Of a stretch of DNA of 48,591 bases, positions 494 through 46,219 are shown one piece after another. Under the pieces are notes generated by a model. It was not told where the DNA came from. It worked only from the letters and a program-made list of their open reading frames with translations, and did no database searches. How positions within the stretch are numbered: the first letter of the stretch is position 1; each line of letters begins with the position of its first letter. The position numbers and the translations under genes are program-made. The stretch is from Methanobacterium sp. (GTDB taxonomy: Archaea; Methanobacteriota; Methanobacteria; Methanobacteriales; Methanobacteriaceae), in contig PMWA01000080.1 of assembly GCA_003166335.1 (NCBI GenBank), positions 1 to 48,591 on the forward strand, read 5' to 3'.

Positions 494-673
494 TTATTTG
501 ATGAATTTTAATTTCTTCGCTATTCGACACATAGCATTATCCTTTAAAATTACTCTTTGTGCTTTATGACGTCCTGTTTTAACTATAATAATAGTATCAG
601 TAATTTTCCTAGCTTCACCGACAATTGTTTCTCCTTTAATAATATCTCCTTTATTTGTGTATACTTGATTCAT
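494..673 (-). CDS. Small basic hypothetical protein (59 aa), coupled to the upstream RHH gene
   Basis: ATG at 673 follows the TGA of 675..1022 by one base (TGAAATG). Confidence 0.5.
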   Translation of the reverse strand: MNQVYTNKGDIIKGETIVGEARKITDTIIIVKTGRHKAQRVILKDNAMCRIAKKLKFIK

Positions 674-674
674 T

Positions 675-1022
675 TCAAATCGTCTCCAATCGACCTTCAT
701 CCTCTAGTTCATCAGTGATTTTACAAACAAGCTCATAATCTAATTCCAGATCATCAGCTACTTCGTAATCATAAGCTTCTGAATAACTTCTATAATAACC
801 TAAAACTTCTTTTTTAGCGGTATCATAATCAACATCACGAATCTTAATAATCTTTATTGCTTTGAGTTTATCTCTTACAGATTCTCTTATAAAGTCAGAG
901 ACACTAAGATATACACCAGCTTCTATTAAAGCCTCTATTTCCTTAATTTCTTTGGGGGTGACTTTTGTCCCAACTGCTTTAGGCCGTAATTGATCATCGG
1001 GTTTAGTTATTATAGCTGTCAT
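675..1022 (-). CDS. Ribbon-helix-helix (CopG/Arc-like) regulator with a C-terminal HTH-like domain
   Basis: VGTKVTPKEIKEIEALIEAGVYLSVSDFIRESVRDKL is an RHH signature; EVADDLELDYELVCKITDEL is HTH-like. Confidence 0.75.
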   Translation of the reverse strand: MTAIITKPDDQLRPKAVGTKVTPKEIKEIEALIEAGVYLSVSDFIRESVRDKLKAIKIIKIRDVDYDTAKKEVLGYYRSYSEAYDYEVADDLELDYELVCKITDELEDEGRLETI

Positions 1023-1566
1023 AGTATTTTATATATAGTTAACGATATATAAAACCAACTATAATTTTTAAAATTGTCAAAAAATAATTAAATAGAATCT
1101 TAATAGCTACAAAGCAAATCAGACCGGCTTCTAAATTCGAGCAAAAAAAATCAATTTAATATTAGAATAAAATATTCAAAAAAAAACACTATTTAAATCA
1201 AAATAACTGCACCTTCTCGAAATCATCATGCAATTTACATTTATCTTCTACATGGCAGATTCCCCAACCTTGAGCACATGCTTCGCATGGAAGAATATTT
1301 AAATCATTCAAACGGACCATTATTGCTTCGCAGTTTTTTATTTATCACTTGATGGTCCTGAAAATTGGGTAAATGGTGTTTATCAATCTATGGAGAATAT
1401 TATCTCTAATTGGGAACCACAGTTTACTTGGATATGAAAACTAAATAATTATTAAATTATCCTTCAGAAATCTTAACTTTTTTTAATATAATTAGATTTT
1501 TTGTAGAATATCAACTCAATTTTAGGAAATCCCAAAATAAAATTAGGTTCTATTATATAAACTTAA

Positions 1567-1575
1567 CATTCACCT
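1567..1575 (+). repeat. Left 9-bp target site duplication CATTCACCT
   Basis: Identical to 5912-5920 and directly outside the left TIR. Confidence 0.88.
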
Positions 1576-1598
1576 GATACTGCTAACTTTATGTTCTT
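1576..1598 (+). repeat. Left terminal inverted repeat
   Basis: 20/23 inverted match to 5889-5911. Confidence 0.88.
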
Positions 1599-1808
1599 TT
1601 TTATACTTTAGTATAATTTTTATTACTAATTATAATTTCTATTATTACTAATTTCTCTTTAAAGTGTAACTTTTAAGTATTATTAAGAATTAACACATTA
1701 TTATTAAAAAATTAAAATCGTAAGTTTTATCTGCAATAACTTAACAAATTCCATTTAGAAACTGTATATTGGGATTTTAGGTTTTTTATTTGGGGGGTCG
1801 TATTTTTT

Positions 1809-4442
1809 ATGGAAGTAGAGCAAATATTAGTCAAAAGATCGGGAGAAACTGAAATAATCCCACCAGGAAGAATAAAATGTTACATAACGGGCAAAACAAA
1901 AAAAGATACACCTGAAGAACACGTCCGTCAAAGAGTAGTAAGAAGCCTAGTTGAAGAGTATGGATATGAAAAAAAGGATATTCAACTTGAATTTAAAATA
2001 AAAATGGCTAGTGCTAGTAAAAAAGCAGATATCGCTATTTTTGAGAAAGATCAGAAACATAAACAAGAAAATGTCTTTTTAATTGTCGAAGCAAAAAGAG
2101 AAGATATTAAGCCCTCTGATAGGGAAGATGGAATAGAACAATTAAAAAGTTACATGTCTGCAAGTATCAACTGCAAATTTGGAATGTGGGTTGGATCAGA
2201 GGTAATGGTCTTTGAAAAAGTAGAGAATGAAAGAAACAGTTATGATTATGTTGAATCTGTTGATATTCCAAGGGAAGGTGTAACAGCTTCAAATCTTACT
2301 TTTGATTTATTGGTTCCAGCAACAGATGGTTTAAGAGATGTTTTTAAAAGATGTCATAATTATATTCATACAAATCAAGGAATATCGAAAGATCAAGCTT
2401 TTCATGAATTTTTAAAACTTATTTTTTGTAAAGTTCATGATGAAAGAGAATCGTATGAACTTGATTTTTATATAACTAATGAAGAGATAAGATCGGAGTT
2501 AGGGCAAAGAAAATTAAAAAAAAGAATTGATTTCCTCTTTTTAGATGTTAAAGAAACCTATGATTATATATTTGAACCACAAGAAAAGATTCAACTCGAA
2601 AAACGAGTCTTAGCTTACATTGTAGGGGAACTTCAAAAATATACATTAATAGGCACTGAATCTGATTATAAAGGAGAAGCTTATGAGGAAATTGTAGGTT
2701 CAAACTTGAGAGGAGATAAAGGAGAGTTTTTCACACCAAGAAACTTATGTGAAATGGCGGTGGAAATGGTATTTTCTTTGATACCTAAAAAAGAAATATT
2801 AAAAATGAAAATACTTGATCCGGCATGTGGTACAGGAGGTTTTTTAAAAACAGTCGTTGATCATCATCGTAAACTTGTTCAAGAAGAAGAATCAAGAAAA
2901 TATAAAGATGACACTGAATTATTGCATAGTGTAAATGAGAGAGTTAAAAGCATATGTAATAAAAAAGTGTATGGTATTGATTTTAATCCTTTATTGGTTC
3001 GTGCTGGTCAAATGAACCTAGTAATGCATGGAGATGGTTCTTCGAACATTTTCCATGCAAATTCATTAGTATCTCCAAGTGAATGGAAAAAAGACGTGAG
3101 AAAAGCCGTTCATTACGAGGATTTTGATATTATTTTTACTAATCCTCCATTTGGTGAAAACTTATCTTATGATGACCCTTACATTTTAGATTCATACGAA
3201 TTATCAATACATGAATCTAAGAGTCGTAGAAATTCAATGCCACCTGAACAACTTTTTTTTGAGAAATGCTACCAATTTTTGAAACCAGATGGATATCTGG
3301 TCATAGTGGCTCCCGATAATGTATTAAGTAATCCTGGACTTAAATTTATGAGGAGATGGCTGTTAACCAAATTTAATATTATTGCAAGTGTTTATTTACC
3401 TGAAGAGATGTTTGAACCATCAGTAGGTTCTCAAACTAGTTTAACAATCTTTAAAAAGAAAAAAGGAAGATTGTCTGCAAAAGAAAAGGAATTAAAAGAT
3501 ATTGATATTTACAACGTTTTTATGGCGATTGCCAAAAAAATAGGACATGATAAACGAGGAGATCCCATAATCCTAAGAGATGAAATAGGTAATGAGATAT
3601 ACCAAAAAGTTAAAAGACCTTTTATTAAGAAAACTTTTGATGGAAAAATCGAAATAGATACTGTTGAATCTGATGAAGCAGTATTAGATGATGATTTACC
3701 CTTTATTACTCAGGGATTTAAAGAATGGTTAAACGATAATCATGTGTTAATTAAAAAATTCTCTTTTACGAATATACCTTCAGACTATTTGTTGTCTGGT
3801 GAAAATAGGTTAGATGCAACTTATTATAATAAAGATGCATTCGTAGTTAGGAAATTATTAAAGGATAGTGGAGTTCCACTTAAAACCGTTGATTACTATA
3901 GTGAGGATGTTTTTAATCGCCCACCCATAAAGAGAGCATTTACTGATGATTTGAATATTGGAACACCTTATATGCAACCTTCGGAGATGTTTGATTTTAT
4001 TTGGGATGCAAAGAAGTATGTAATTGAAGATAAGATGAATAAGATTGAAGATTGGCATATAAAAGATGAATGGATTGTTGTTACTCAATCTGGTAATGCT
4101 GGAAAACCGTTTTTTGTAACAGAAAAATTAGAAAACATTGTTTTATCGCAAAATGCCATTAGAATTGTACCTAAAGAAGGAGTTTATTCTGGATTTTTAT
4201 ATGCATATTTATCAACATATTTGGGTCAGACTCTTATTAAGAAAGACAAATTTGGGGTTACTGTGAAGCATATAATGCCTCATCACGTATCTTCTGTTCC
4301 TGTACCTAATATTGATGAAGATAAGCAAAAGATTATTCATAATAAGATAAAAAAAGCATTTGAATTAAGAGAGGAAGCGAATGAACTAATAAAAGATTGT
4401 AAAGAGATGATTTATGAAGAACTAGGTTTAAAGAAAAAATAG
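1809..4442 (+). CDS. Single-chain restriction-modification enzyme: HsdR_N-like PD-(D/E)xK nuclease + N6-adenine MTase + one HsdS-type TRD
   Basis: N-terminus PEEHVRQ...YGY...ADIAIF...LIVEAK; MTase motifs GEFFTPR, LDPACGTGGFL, NPPF; C-terminus RLDATYY...TQSG...SQNAIRI...HIMPHHVSSVPVP followed by an S-subunit-like helix. Confidence 0.9.
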   Translation: MEVEQILVKRSGETEIIPPGRIKCYITGKTKKDTPEEHVRQRVVRSLVEEYGYEKKDIQLEFKIKMASASKKADIAIFEKDQKHKQENVFLIVEAKREDIKPSDREDGIEQLKSYMSASINCKFGMWVGSEVMVFEKVENERNSYDYVESVDIPREGVTASNLTFDLLVPATDGLRDVFKRCHNYIHTNQGISKDQAFHEFLKLIFCKVHDERESYELDFYITNEEIRSELGQRKLKKRIDFLFLDVKETYDYIFEPQEKIQLEKRVLAYIVGELQKYTLIGTESDYKGEAYEEIVGSNLRGDKGEFFTPRNLCEMAVEMVFSLIPKKEILKMKILDPACGTGGFLKTVVDHHRKLVQEEESRKYKDDTELLHSVNERVKSICNKKVYGIDFNPLLVRAGQMNLVMHGDGSSNIFHANSLVSPSEWKKDVRKAVHYEDFDIIFTNPPFGENLSYDDPYILDSYELSIHESKSRRNSMPPEQLFFEKCYQFLKPDGYLVIVAPDNVLSNPGLKFMRRWLLTKFNIIASVYLPEEMFEPSVGSQTSLTIFKKKKGRLSAKEKELKDIDIYNVFMAIAKKIGHDKRGDPIILRDEIGNEIYQKVKRPFIKKTFDGKIEIDTVESDEAVLDDDLPFITQGFKEWLNDNHVLIKKFSFTNIPSDYLLSGENRLDATYYNKDAFVVRKLLKDSGVPLKTVDYYSEDVFNRPPIKRAFTDDLNIGTPYMQPSEMFDFIWDAKKYVIEDKMNKIEDWHIKDEWIVVTQSGNAGKPFFVTEKLENIVLSQNAIRIVPKEGVYSGFLYAYLSTYLGQTLIKKDKFGVTVKHIMPHHVSSVPVPNIDEDKQKIIHNKIKKAFELREEANELIKDCKEMIYEELGLKKK

Positions 4443-4491
4443 GGGCAATATTATTATGGCCCCCAATAACTCCAGATAAAAATATATCTGG
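4442..4491. terminator. Two hairpins between the convergent RM and transposase genes
   Basis: GGGGCAATA-TTAT-TATGGCCCC (one mismatch) and CCAGATA-AAAATA-TATCTGG, followed by a T run. Confidence 0.5.
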
Positions 4492-4516
4492 TTTTTCATA
4501 TAAAACTTTGTTTTTT

Positions 4517-5377
4517 TTATAAATTATTAACCTCCCATTGGGTCGCCAAATCGATTAAACTCTCCCATCTATCCGTTAAATCCAGTTTTATTCCAGCGGC
4601 TTCAGCGGGTGTTTTACCACCTAAACTACTATGTGGTCTTAGGAAGTTGTAAAAAACAAACCAACCGTCTAGCATTGTTCCTGTCTTATCCATTTGATCC
4701 ATACCTCTCCTAGCTCTCATCATATCTTTTAATGTCCCATGTAACCTTTCAACCATATTCTGATGAACTCTACCATTTATTCCTACATTTTGAATTAACC
4801 GACAAGTTCGGTTACGGTCGCCGAAATGAAGGTTGAATCCTTTAGGATATGCGAAGCAACCATCAGCATAGATTATTCGTGGTTTTCGTATTGTCCGGTT
4901 ACGTGCATCTTTGAATAATATTTTACTATCCTTTATAGTGCGGGTGTTTGATAAGTGTTCAGCGACCATAAAACGAGTCCGTTCGTCAATTATCTCCCAG
5001 AACCATTTATTTTCACCTTTAATTTTGATAACTGTTTCATCCACGTGCCAGATGTCACCGAGGTCTGCTTTTAAGGTGTCAGTGTAGTTTTTGGTTAGTG
5101 TACTGTATTTGTTTATCCATTTATAAATTGCAACTGATGATACTTTTACTTTGAAGAGGTATTGTATTTGTCTTTCTATTTTACGTATGCTCATGCCCTC
5201 ATAATATAAGTCCATTGCAAATGCTATGACTTGTTTTTTATTCCTCATAGCTGTGAAATTATCGTTGTCTATGAATGTTTTACCACAATCTTTGCATAGA
5301 TATCTCTGTTGACCGTTAACTTTGCCTTTTTTTATTATTTTTGCTGACCCACAGTTTTTGCAATCCATAAGCTTCAT
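4517..5377 (-). CDS. IS6-like DDE transposase with N-terminal Zn ribbon and HTH
   Basis: CKNC...GQQRYLCKDC Zn ribbon; HTH GMSIRKI...VSSVAIYKWI; catalytic motifs WHVDET, IYADG, NMVERLH; C-terminal YNFLRPHSSLGGKTPAE. ORF is intact. Confidence 0.92.
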   Translation of the reverse strand: MKLMDCKNCGSAKIIKKGKVNGQQRYLCKDCGKTFIDNDNFTAMRNKKQVIAFAMDLYYEGMSIRKIERQIQYLFKVKVSSVAIYKWINKYSTLTKNYTDTLKADLGDIWHVDETVIKIKGENKWFWEIIDERTRFMVAEHLSNTRTIKDSKILFKDARNRTIRKPRIIYADGCFAYPKGFNLHFGDRNRTCRLIQNVGINGRVHQNMVERLHGTLKDMMRARRGMDQMDKTGTMLDGWFVFYNFLRPHSSLGGKTPAEAAGIKLDLTDRWESLIDLATQWEVNNL

Positions 5378-5494
5378 CCCCTACTTAATATATTGTTTTA
5401 GGAGTATTTAAAGCTTTAGGTCTAGTTTAAGGGTTTAAATCTACCCAAAATATAGGGTTAATTTTATAAGCAATGTATCATAAAATAGTAGATT

Positions 5495-5653
5495 ATGGGA
5501 ATTAAAGTAAGAATATATGCTGACAAAGAAGGAAAACAATTCAAACTCTCAATACCCAAAAAAGTTATAGAGTTGCAAGGGTATAAGCATAAAGATTTGT
5601 TCGAATTAGAAATAGAGGGTAAAGACATGATATTAAGGAAGGTGGATGAATAA
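5495..5653 (+). CDS. AbrB/MazE/SpoVT-like DNA-binding protein (52 aa; not in ORF track)
   Basis: MGIKVRIYADKEGKQFKLSIPKKVIELQGYKHKDLFELEIEGKDMILRKVDE fits the swapped-hairpin pattern; divergent from the transposase. Confidence 0.75.
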   Translation: MGIKVRIYADKEGKQFKLSIPKKVIELQGYKHKDLFELEIEGKDMILRKVDE

Positions 5654-5814
5654 TGGTTTCAGAAGATGTTGAAATATTAAGTGACATGCTAACCGCATTA
5701 GTCGATATATTAGTTGAAAAAGGATTACTCACTCAGGAAGAATACGAGGATAGAGTTAAAATTTTACTCGAAAAATCTGCAAAACTAACAAGATTCGATG
5801 ACCTAGAAGAATAA
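5653..5814 (+). CDS. Small acidic helical protein, SHOCT-like motif (53 aa; not in ORF track)
   Basis: TAATG overlap with the AbrB-like gene; MVSEDVEILSDMLTALVDILVEKGLLTQEEYEDRVKILLEKSAKLTRFDDLEE. Confidence 0.7.
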   Translation: MVSEDVEILSDMLTALVDILVEKGLLTQEEYEDRVKILLEKSAKLTRFDDLEE

Positions 5815-5888
5815 AAAATAAAAAGTATTTTACAGTATAATATCAATTTTTATAATTTTAATATTACCCAGATGCAAATATTTTTTAT

Positions 5889-5911
5889 AAGCACATCAAG
5901 TTAGCAGAATC
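5889..5911 (-). repeat. Right terminal inverted repeat
   Basis: AAGCACATCAAGTTAGCAGAATC, inverted match to 1576-1598. Confidence 0.88.
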
Positions 5912-5920
5912 CATTCACCT
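5912..5920 (+). repeat. Right 9-bp target site duplication CATTCACCT
   Basis: Identical to 1567-1575. Confidence 0.88.
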
Positions 5921-6161
5921 AACCCCGAAGTCTTACTTTACCTTCAAATTCTTCCTCTTCTAAAACGCATCCACATTTTTTACAAACATATTCATAATGT
6001 TGACTATCTAAGTATACGTTTTGCGAACTACATTCTGGGCAGTTTAAAGTTGTTTTTCTTTCAGATATTTCTACGTTTATTGAGGGTATATGATCTTCTT
6101 TCTCGGCATTATGACAATTCTGATCCAAATATTCCTCATGACGTAACCTGTTGTTACTCAA
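5919..6161 (-). CDS. TFIIB-type zinc ribbon protein
   Basis: CPECSS...EYVCKKCGCVL; GGAGG upstream of the TTG start. Confidence 0.75.
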   Translation of the reverse strand: MSNNRLRHEEYLDQNCHNAEKEDHIPSINVEISERKTTLNCPECSSQNVYLDSQHYEYVCKKCGCVLEEEEFEGKVRLRG

Positions 6162-45640: not shown

Positions 45641-46219
45641 ATGAAAATAATGGTTATAACAAGTAGTCCCAATAAAGAAGGTTTAACCGAAAGCTGCGGT
45701 GAAGCTGCAAAAAAAGGAATTGAAAAAGGAAACGGCGAAGCAATAATGGTCCGTTTGAATGATTTAAATATTCTTAAATGCGAAGCATGTGAGCAGGGTT
45801 GGGGAATCTGCTTGAAAGGTAATAAATGTATTTTGGAGGATGATTTCGAGAAGGTGCATGAAGCGATGGGTGAAGTTGATGGTTTTGTTGTTATAACTCC
45901 TGTATACTTTCATGATATGAGTGAATCAGCCAAGATGTTCTTCGACAGATTAAGAAGGTGCGAAGCGAATCTTCATTTTAACCGTGAAAAAGTAAACATA
46001 ACAGAGAAAAAGCCGTTTATATGCGTGGCAGCCGCAGGTGGCGGTGGAAGTGGAACTCTTTCATGTTTAACTAATATGGAAAGATTATTTTTCCACCTGA
46101 ACAAGATTGACTATTCAAATCTTAAAAAATTTGATTATATTGGTGTTACTCAGAGAAATAAAGAATATATGCTCGATGCAATAGAAGCAAGTGCTTTTAA
46201 AATGGCTAAAGGCGAATAA
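45641..46219 (+). CDS. Flavodoxin-like iron-sulfur flavoprotein / FMN reductase family protein
   Basis: SSPNKEGLT, CEAC..GWGIC....C...DD, TPVYF. Confidence 0.9.
   Translation: MKIMVITSSPNKEGLTESCGEAAKKGIEKGNGEAIMVRLNDLNILKCEACEQGWGICLKGNKCILEDDFEKVHEAMGEVDGFVVITPVYFHDMSESAKMFFDRLRRCEANLHFNREKVNITEKKPFICVAAAGGGGSGTLSCLTNMERLFFHLNKIDYSNLKKFDYIGVTQRNKEYMLDAIEASAFKMAKGE

Follow-up and report, generated by a model that had tools for sequence, protein, structure and literature searches.

A probable unit transposon of an archaeal IS6-like clade carrying a restriction-modification gene, and its relatives with exchangeable cargo

Background

A contig of a Methanobacterium sp. (PMWA01000080.1, assembly GCA_003166335.1) raises the question of whether a restriction-modification (RM) gene and an IS6-like transposase gene lying next to it are neighbours only, or parts of one mobile unit bounded by a single pair of distant terminal inverted repeats (TIRs). 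The original prediction, made from the 48,591-nt stretch that we call the window, favoured the latter: a transposon with one internal transposase that moves a defence gene, possibly one of a family with exchangeable cargo. Taken as a whole, the structure of the locus, its empty alleles and its relatives in other archaea are very probably explained by a unit transposon, not a composite one, from a clade of IS6-like elements in archaea.

One element between two distant ends

The whole unit transposon spans 4336 bp (window 1576-5911) and has 31% GC, compared with 32% for the genome. Its cargo-side TIR lies at 1576-1598 on the plus strand (GATACTGCTAACTTTATGTTCTT; family consensus start G[AG]T[AT]CTG) and its core-side TIR at 5889-5911 on the minus strand (reverse complement GATTCTGCTAACTTGATGTGCTT); the pair matches at 20 of 23 positions, the mismatches falling at positions 4, 15 and 20. 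Abutting them on the plus strand are two copies of CATTCACCT, at 1567-1575 and 5912-5920, forming an exact 9-bp target site duplication beyond which the match does not extend. Between the TIRs lie the RM gene (1809-4442, plus strand), one intact DDE transposase gene (4517-5377, minus strand) and two tiny genes, orfA (5495-5653) and orfB (5653-5814), both on the plus strand. The transposase open reading frame (ORF) is internal, 2944 bp from one element end and 534 bp from the other, and no TIR adjoins it, nor did the first 12 kb of the window hold any further TIR-like site above threshold. The ends, the duplication and the gene content had been proposed from the letters alone and were reproduced in coordinates and sequence.

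An inverted repeat of at least 20/23 with an abutting 9-bp duplication occurred in none of 150 random 20.85-kb windows of the same genome, and the same end motif with a duplication was seen in 89 other distinct elements. No composite or pseudo-compound structure was found, as the element holds one transposase and the 126-contig assembly one full copy. Genes for a resolvase, TnsABC or TniQ were absent from the window element and from the 195 family proteins scanned, which were cargo and a few core proteins, mostly one per cluster. A solitary high-scoring family TIR (G000:C90:12583) and a decayed transposase fragment (G000:C7:24269-24502) are traces of earlier family members in this genome.

Empty sites and coexisting alleles

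The original prediction held that an empty allele with a single CATTCACCT should exist, and such alleles were present in two places. Genome G063 carries 62 identical bases across the insertion site with a single CATTCACCT, and in a peat sequencing run (X12; four of the 20 runs listed were compared in detail) a contig joins 1566 to 5912, skipping 4345 bases with 9 ambiguous bases. Together with the ends of the same type in homologues, these alleles support the proposed single-transposase unit moving a defence gene. Some points weigh against this use of them: the G063 allele is non-syntenic, lying at the homologous end of an integrase island, and the X12 joint has 29 bases on its short side at 90% likeness, was flagged weak, and may come from a related island instead. 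The idea that the 62-bp target is itself a repeated element was rejected; it occurred only in this assembly (G000) and G063 among 121 genomes, the other 50 giving short AT-rich matches.

In X12 the joint has a depth of 45.9 and the bins of the element mostly 4-15, contig depth in runs not being equal to the share of cells, and loose ends at 5933 read an island-free allele; three alleles (island-free, island only, island with transposon) seem to coexist in this run. The uninterrupted allele is read by loose ends at 5933 in runs X5, X12 and X15. The claim that the insertion is recent fared unevenly: the site is indeed polymorphic in X12, and against recency stand an X12 variant that shares the right junction and differs at 14 of 495 bases, and TIRs that are less perfect than those of 66 of the 90 family members. 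Parts of the element are covered in RNA run X15, whose contigs may include DNA and therefore do not count as a sign of expression.

A family of bounded elements

The original prediction had called for a genome-wide search for the ends and for transposase homologues, with cargo and duplication length tabulated, and this search gave 90 distinct elements. We collected 163 loci (the best 79 of 230 genome matches, 80 of at least 534 metagenome matches, two viral loci, L049 and the window) and looked in them for pairs of inverted repeats adjoined by a direct repeat, at first free of any motif and then limited to the start G[AG][TC][AT]CT that emerged. TIRs with an 8-9-bp duplication bounded 92 of the 163, of which two duplicates were removed; the sample is mostly from Bathyarchaeia and its members are related, so that none of the counts below are independent. 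The duplication is 9 bp long in 82/90 elements and 8 bp in 8/90, and element length ranges from 1798 to 10430 bp (median 4229), with no bare insertion sequence (IS) among them, the smallest being the one of 1798 bp. At the TIR tips, G1 is found in 180/180 and G7 in 178/180, with A at base 2 in 133 cases and G in the other 47; the window copy starts GAT. Close homologues with other ends directly beside the ORF, which the original prediction had named as evidence against itself, were not seen; in the close homologues, ends like these lie at a distance from the ORF and enclose different cargo. As for the other 71 loci, many were cut by contig ends, 14 had two TIR-like ends with unmatched flanks, and one had a single mismatch.

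Named hosts of members include Methanobacterium, Methanoperedens, Methanolobus, Archaeoglobus, Bathyarchaeia, Nitrososphaerota, Woesearchaeota and Thermoplasmatota, and there is mostly one copy per genome; among 200 other genomes compared in a family-level search, 7 had a close transposase (71-87% identity), and one of the 7 had two loci. Viral or plasmid vehicles were considered and rejected, as the two viral-contig loci are distant and unbounded, a phage collection gave none, and plasmids gave only distant IS6 members below 60% identity.

Several observations concern single members or subsets. Seventeen of the 90 elements take up a contig completely except for flanks of no more than 250 bases per side, often 127 (L158, L160, L162, L176, L181, L199, L213, L217, L236 and others), as expected where an insertion is polymorphic in a population. 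One single-contig genome starts exactly at a family TIR (L050:1-2659, with L244), and its last bases mismatch the other flank, a sign either of rearrangement or of a break in the assembly there. Two transposases lie inside one bounded element (L148:56-10485), which probably represents nested insertions. Many elements of the Bathyarchaeia type carry a conserved structured sequence of ~100 nt after orfB, with 19 nhmmer matches of which 10 are the seeds (L200:11227-11335, L192:2352-2460, L184:2772-2885 and 16 more); of its 26 predicted pairs 8 show double changes, with a covariation term near zero. It matches no Rfam family, is absent from this genome, and is possibly a non-coding RNA.

Cargo exchange around a common core

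The elements share a core of ~1.3 kb, transposase-regulator-OrfB, and differ in their cargo, which lies on both arms in 67/90 and includes an ORF of at least 100 aa in 89/90. The proposal of a family with exchangeable cargo was thereby upheld, since similar cores occur with different cargo on both arms among the 90 elements: pairs with 85-89% identical cores share only ~1.27 kb, with different cargo on either side, and two elements (L111 and L234) have the left arm in common (87%) but not the core (70%). This pattern shows cargo exchange on either side of the core. In two others (L184 and L185) the same 3443 bp, without a single difference, stand at unrelated sites; BLAST found nothing in L184 that matches the 1-kb left flank of L185, and the pair directly supports movement of the cargo as a unit.

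RM, Lamassu-like, GmrSD, PIN and toxin-antitoxin genes are among the cargo. Defence-type genes occur in 55/90 elements, RM-type genes in 36/90, and 91 of 255 cargo ORFs are of defence type, where the typing consists of Pfam and PADLOC results on mostly one protein per cluster, assigned by us and passed to the cluster, with crude ORF calls; among the flanking genes 3/108 are of defence type, these having been scanned with Pfam alone at a stricter threshold. One cargo set recurs with a PIN-like protein, a SocA/DarG-like protein and a protein of ~370-450 aa (L083, L094, L104, L111, L120, L208, L234), and another as two genes of ~165 and ~450 aa (L099, L108, L122, L187, L215); judged by sequence, both sets, which lack a full family match, are candidate new defence systems. 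That cargo is generally captured through internal TIRs was rejected, an extra internal TIR-like site being found in only 6/90 elements. No recombination-site motif was seen by eye at the core/cargo borders in the part of the borders inspected; the upstream border falls at the transposase promoter.

In the window, the cargo is a single chain of 877 aa (PF13588, PF02384, PF01420) with an HsdR_N-type nuclease, an N6-adenine methyltransferase and one target-recognition domain, in which the motifs DPACGTGG and NPPF are intact. Its best solved relative is RM.BsaXI (E 6.7e-23). Among 120 homologues listed, two are full-length fused relatives (86% and 75%), and the others are ~650 aa without the specificity part. 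With its fused nuclease, N6 methyltransferase and recognition domain, the protein would be a Type IIG/IIB-like RM enzyme. It scores 580 bits against MAD2 (cut-off 720) and 201 bits against MAD5 (cut-off 400); both scores fall below the cut-offs, and a single cargo gene in an element without room for other mad genes gives no MADS system. Type IIB/IIG enzymes such as RM.BsaXI, and MAD2/MAD5 of MADS, likewise fuse nuclease and methyltransferase and are followed by specificity-subunit sequence; the cargo here differs in having only one target-recognition domain, fused in frame. Such cargo may provide defence or addiction. At window 3919 (RM codon 704, specificity domain) three DNA runs read C versus G in the window, either a strain variant or an assembly error.

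Transposase and core proteins

The 286-aa transposase has an N-terminal C4 zinc finger and scores 129 bits against the IS6 model NF033587 (cut-off 125; PF13610, E 6.4e-18), while the IS1 model (74 bits, cut-off 100) and the IS1595 model (18.5 bits, cut-off 75) both stay below their cut-offs. NF050000, a zinc domain of IS1/IS1595 type, matches its N-terminus, and no IS1/IS1595-type catalytic domain was found. The reading frame and the DDE triad are intact, and C6, C9, C28, C31, D113, D172 and E210, the last three forming the triad, are invariant across 53 aligned transposases, 52 of them chosen from 120 matches listed. ISCpe7 (~28% identity) and ISHme1 (30%) each fall outside the clade on a long branch; a quick unrooted tree gives the methanogen clade a support of 99 and leaves the deep branches weak. 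A PDB sequence search with the transposase alignment returned zinc fingers only.

The two tiny genes were there as originally described, but they are not cargo; orfA and orfB are conserved core genes of the family. OrfA (52 aa) is a putative AbrB/MazE-like regulator (weak PF04014, E 0.021), 69-76% identical in six family relatives. Across the family, 72/90 elements have an OrfA that is presumably of ribbon-helix-helix (RHH) fold, a likeness we take from its sequence pattern, with no Pfam match; an AbrB-like gene occurs in 21 and stands alone in 14, among them all 11 methanogen-clade members, and most non-methanogen members have the RHH-like protein. A palindrome of the GGTATC-N6-GATACC type is found upstream of the transposase gene in 37/72 RHH-type elements, 2/14 AbrB-only elements and 1/4 with neither, a distribution by OrfA type which suggests autoregulation, the small DNA-binding OrfA probably repressing the transposase. 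OrfB (53 aa), an acidic helical protein conserved in the family, is found in 84/90 elements; it gave nothing above cut-off against Pfam and family models, Atlas matches of at most 0.81, and no solved relative below E 0.03, and it may act as an accessory factor. In Methanobacteriaceae orfA-orfB stand divergent and upstream of the transposase, and elsewhere mostly after it. The gap between the divergent genes here (5378-5494) probably holds both promoters, given the gene orientation and the TATA-like motifs upstream of relatives' transposases.

The integrase island around the insertion

To the right of the element lies a host TFIIB-type zinc-ribbon gene (5919-6161, minus strand; PF08271, E 5.8e-11), whose last codons are replaced by an island end and whose stop codon includes the last two bases of the right duplication copy; its 3' end is uninterrupted in G063 and G131. 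G063 DNA right of window 5930 continues into the sequence of contig C112 of this assembly, where a tyrosine integrase (PF00589, E 5.7e-12) lies beside TTACTTTA, the probable attachment (att) core of a tyrosine-integrase island, which is also found at window 5933-5940 (plus strand), where the loose ends start. The shared core, the C112 integrase and the G063 continuity indicate that an integrase island has most likely entered the zinc-ribbon gene at its 3' end, with the left part of the window forming one end of that island. The transposon would then sit 12 bp inside the island end, the island being pieced together across a contig gap. That gap counts against this interpretation, as the link between C112 and the window crosses it and no contig here joins both island ends. 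On the C112 side CATTCACCT recurs in inverted orientation at a distance of 11 bp from the core, and it may be an integrase arm site that the transposon's duplication preserved.

Beside the C112 integrase, at the other end of the probable island (L245, G000:C112:612-5900), are an AbrB-like 81-aa ORF and three ORFs of 551, 387 and 168 aa with no Pfam match at E 1e-5; related integrases occur in 14 of 18 same-genus genomes. On the other side of the element, window 494-1022 holds a gene for a 115-aa RHH protein followed by a 68-aa ORF without family match, with two copies in G117, an arrangement that resembles a toxin-antitoxin pair whose second gene is shortened. A sequence of ~129 bp at window 1208-1336, where sequencing runs show many loose ends, recurs in the window at 45730-45858 (86%) and at other loci, in G117, G100 and G131, and is possibly a small mobile repeat or RNA.

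Target choice near TATA-like motifs

In the window a TATA-like motif (TTTATATA, 1554-1561, minus strand) starts 5 bp from the duplication, an offset common to about half of the family. Such a motif starts 4-6 bp from the duplication in 46/86 elements, with a peak at 5, compared with 1-5 of 86 at seven other offsets, 88/3108 random positions, and intergenic controls of 240/4455 (5.4%) in the loci and 984/6750 (14.6%) in this AT-rich genome; with the first motif pattern, 51 matches fell in the 5-9 bp bin versus at most 6 in any other bin (83 elements). In the methanogen clade, nine of 11 elements have it 4-6 bp away, that of the window among them. Alignment gives an 8-bp TTTAWAWA box with an A three bases ahead (0.78). 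The archaeal consensus of B recognition element and TATA box (BRE-TATA) resembles TTTAWAWA with A at -3. Flanking genes are divergent in 25 cases, tandem in 21 and convergent in 8, and of 55 empty sites that were rebuilt only 7 fall within a long ORF, versus 60% coverage, an avoidance that could come from selection alone. The statistical pattern is thus one of targets ~5 bp upstream of TATA-like motifs, sparing genes. The motifs themselves are candidate promoters by sequence. A sigma-70 promoter scan stayed at chance level, the sigma-70 model not being suited to archaea.

That the transposition machinery recognises promoter DNA bent or bound by TATA-binding protein and transcription factor B (TBP/TFB) has, in our estimate, somewhat less than an even chance; the broader picture of a pan-archaeal defence-cargo family, with an IS6-like transposase guided by TBP/TFB on BRE-TATA to insert upstream of promoters, is put forward tentatively. 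Several results weigh against promoter targeting: the motif pattern was broadened once the first results were known, 40/86 elements are without the motif 4-6 bp away, gene starts within 300 bp are not significantly more frequent on the TATA side (19/38 vs 36/84, p 0.56; 24/39 vs 46/87 in a cruder test), and no gene start falls within 500 bp of the motif in the window. It is quite conceivable that the offset reflects the transposase's own preference for a bendable TA-rich step, and the weakly palindromic symmetrised target profile, with its A/T bias outside the duplication, fits that explanation, as does the lack of a significant excess of gene starts downstream of the motif; it accounts less readily for the BRE-like A three bases before the box (0.78), for the excess of divergent over convergent flanks (25 vs 8) and for an offset of ~5 bp kept across four archaeal lineages of differing GC content. 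The motif is one-sided in 43 elements and two-sided in 3 (~7 two-sided expected if independent), which does not separate the models. OrfB as the TATA-targeting factor is disfavoured, as Thermoplasmatota-clade elements without OrfB (L141, L148, L151, L153) keep the motif at 4-6.

Proposed mechanism and alternatives

It can be proposed that one zinc-finger DDE transposase works on two distant TIRs and moves all the DNA between them, that a 9-bp staggered cut at the target yields the 9-bp duplication, and that insertion takes place ~5 bp before a TATA-like motif and spares genes. OrfA would repress the transposase and OrfB assist it; cargo would be swapped on either side of the ~1.3-kb core, here bringing in an RM gene for defence or addiction, and the integrase island would carry this copy between cells. 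Activity is here read from structure, which tempers the claim of mobility. There is very little left for the view that an ordinary small IS6 element lies beside an RM gene, the distant repeats being due to chance or of other origin. Catalogued IS6 members of 789-880 bp are filled by their transposase (PMC7986276), and the RM family is frequent outside transposons (4503 matches among 7999 candidates scored), but no TIR-like site adjoins the transposase ORF, none of the 90 bounded relatives is shorter than 1798 bp, the random-window null gave 0/150, and the empty alleles, which skip exactly the element and one duplication, already refute it. It is unlikely, if less so, that the copy is an old immobile passenger now spread only with the integrase island. 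The TIR differences at 3/23 positions and the 3% divergent variant with the same right junction are what such a passenger would show, as is the presence of the stretch, at half its words or more, in 14 peat/permafrost runs (4 of them possible sources), with one long contig that aligns over 2610 bases in the same position and with a single difference; against it, the transposase frame and DDE triad are intact, element-free island copies coexist, and the ends of a relative at 87% identity have almost the same sequence, which may make the end differences a lineage trait.

How the unit transposon moves is a closer question. Kinship to the IS6 family makes copy-in cointegration of IS6 type, followed by resolution through host recombination, the most likely route by our analysis, if only somewhat probable in itself. 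The barely passed NF033587 cut-off tells against it, as the IS26 mechanism need not carry over. Movement by cut-and-paste, or via a circle (copy-out, paste-in), is a real possibility that falls short of probable; clean matched duplications at 92 loci, the mostly single copy per genome, the lack of a resolvase among the 195 scanned proteins and a transposase only ~28% identical to ISCpe7 all point that way. Tested IS6-family members, however, all form cointegrates, resolved by RecA without a resolvase (PMC7986276, PMC6807381), no end-to-end joint was listed in the contigs of four runs (a weak argument), and the 14 loci with two TIRs and unmatched flanks fit replicative rearrangement, though these could be assembly chimeras.

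Comparison with known systems

If the family shuttles RM, Lamassu-like, GmrSD, PIN and toxin-antitoxin genes, it would be a main route for archaeal defence genes, and its many cargo genes without family would be candidate defence genes. Members in named Methanobacterium and Methanolobus genomes make transposition and promoter targeting testable, and a compact transposase inserting between genes could serve as a tool for methanogen genetics.

Among archaeal gene-carrying transposon-like elements are the Aloposons of Heimdallarchaeia (PMC8813620) and the casposons (PMC6563490), and, as far as these sources describe them, the element here differs in having no giant genes, ParA core module, tRNA targeting, Cas1 or PolB. 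The 2019 survey (PMC6563490), in its available text, reports passenger-carrying DNA transposons as undetected in archaea. Tn7-like defence-cargo transposons (PMC10761935), as presented there, are likewise non-composite, of low copy number and loaded with defence genes, insert at a fixed distance from a recognised feature, and use other mobile elements as vehicles. The family here differs from them in its single 286-aa transposase and its many targets instead of one att site, with no TnsABC, TniQ or CRISPR genes seen. The yeast retrotransposon Ty3 inserts at genes of RNA polymerase III and is targeted via TFIIIB with proven factor dependence. Like Ty3, the family here inserts at a fixed position from a TATA-type element, the likeness here being one of positional pattern alone; if TBP/TFB guidance is true, the family would be a prokaryotic counterpart of Ty3-style targeting, with safe insertion and no dedicated targeting protein or guide RNA.

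The closest likeness is to the long zinc-finger branch of IS6/IS26 (ISCpe7; clade h in PMC7986276, clade VII in PMC6807381, in the parts available), which shares the DDE_Tnp_IS240 domain, an N-terminal CxxC zinc finger, and no resolvase found. The TIRs agree in part with those of IS6, which have a GG tip, a cTGTt motif and G7: G1, cTG and G7 are there, and the second base is usually A. What sets the family apart is a length of 1.8-10.4 kb, an internal transposase with cargo inside one TIR pair, two conserved accessory genes, and a duplication that is mostly of 9 bp. The accessible text of the IS6 review gives elements of 789-880 bp, 8-bp repeats and one passenger-bearing member, ISDsp3 (PMC7986276), and that of PMC6807381 argues that archaeal and long IS6 members form separate families. 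The element here has four ORFs in 4336 bp, compared with the single ORF of IS6 (~0.8-0.9 kb, up to ~1.8 kb on the long branch), and its duplication is 9 bp, as in 82/90 elements, instead of 8 bp, found in 8; on these tests of size, single ORF and duplication, we do not file it as an IS6 insertion sequence. It agrees with the transporter IS (tIS) ISDsp3 in having one transposase and passenger genes within one TIR pair, and the family differs from tIS in that passengers are the rule, on both arms in 67/90 and often defence genes, next to a conserved regulator-OrfB module. No description of this family was found in the literature searched, with most subscription papers, supplements and ISfinder lying outside that search, and the element itself, which is real and well supported, belongs to a large archaeal clade. 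As judged from its genes and ends, it would work as a tIS built on an IS6-like transposase.

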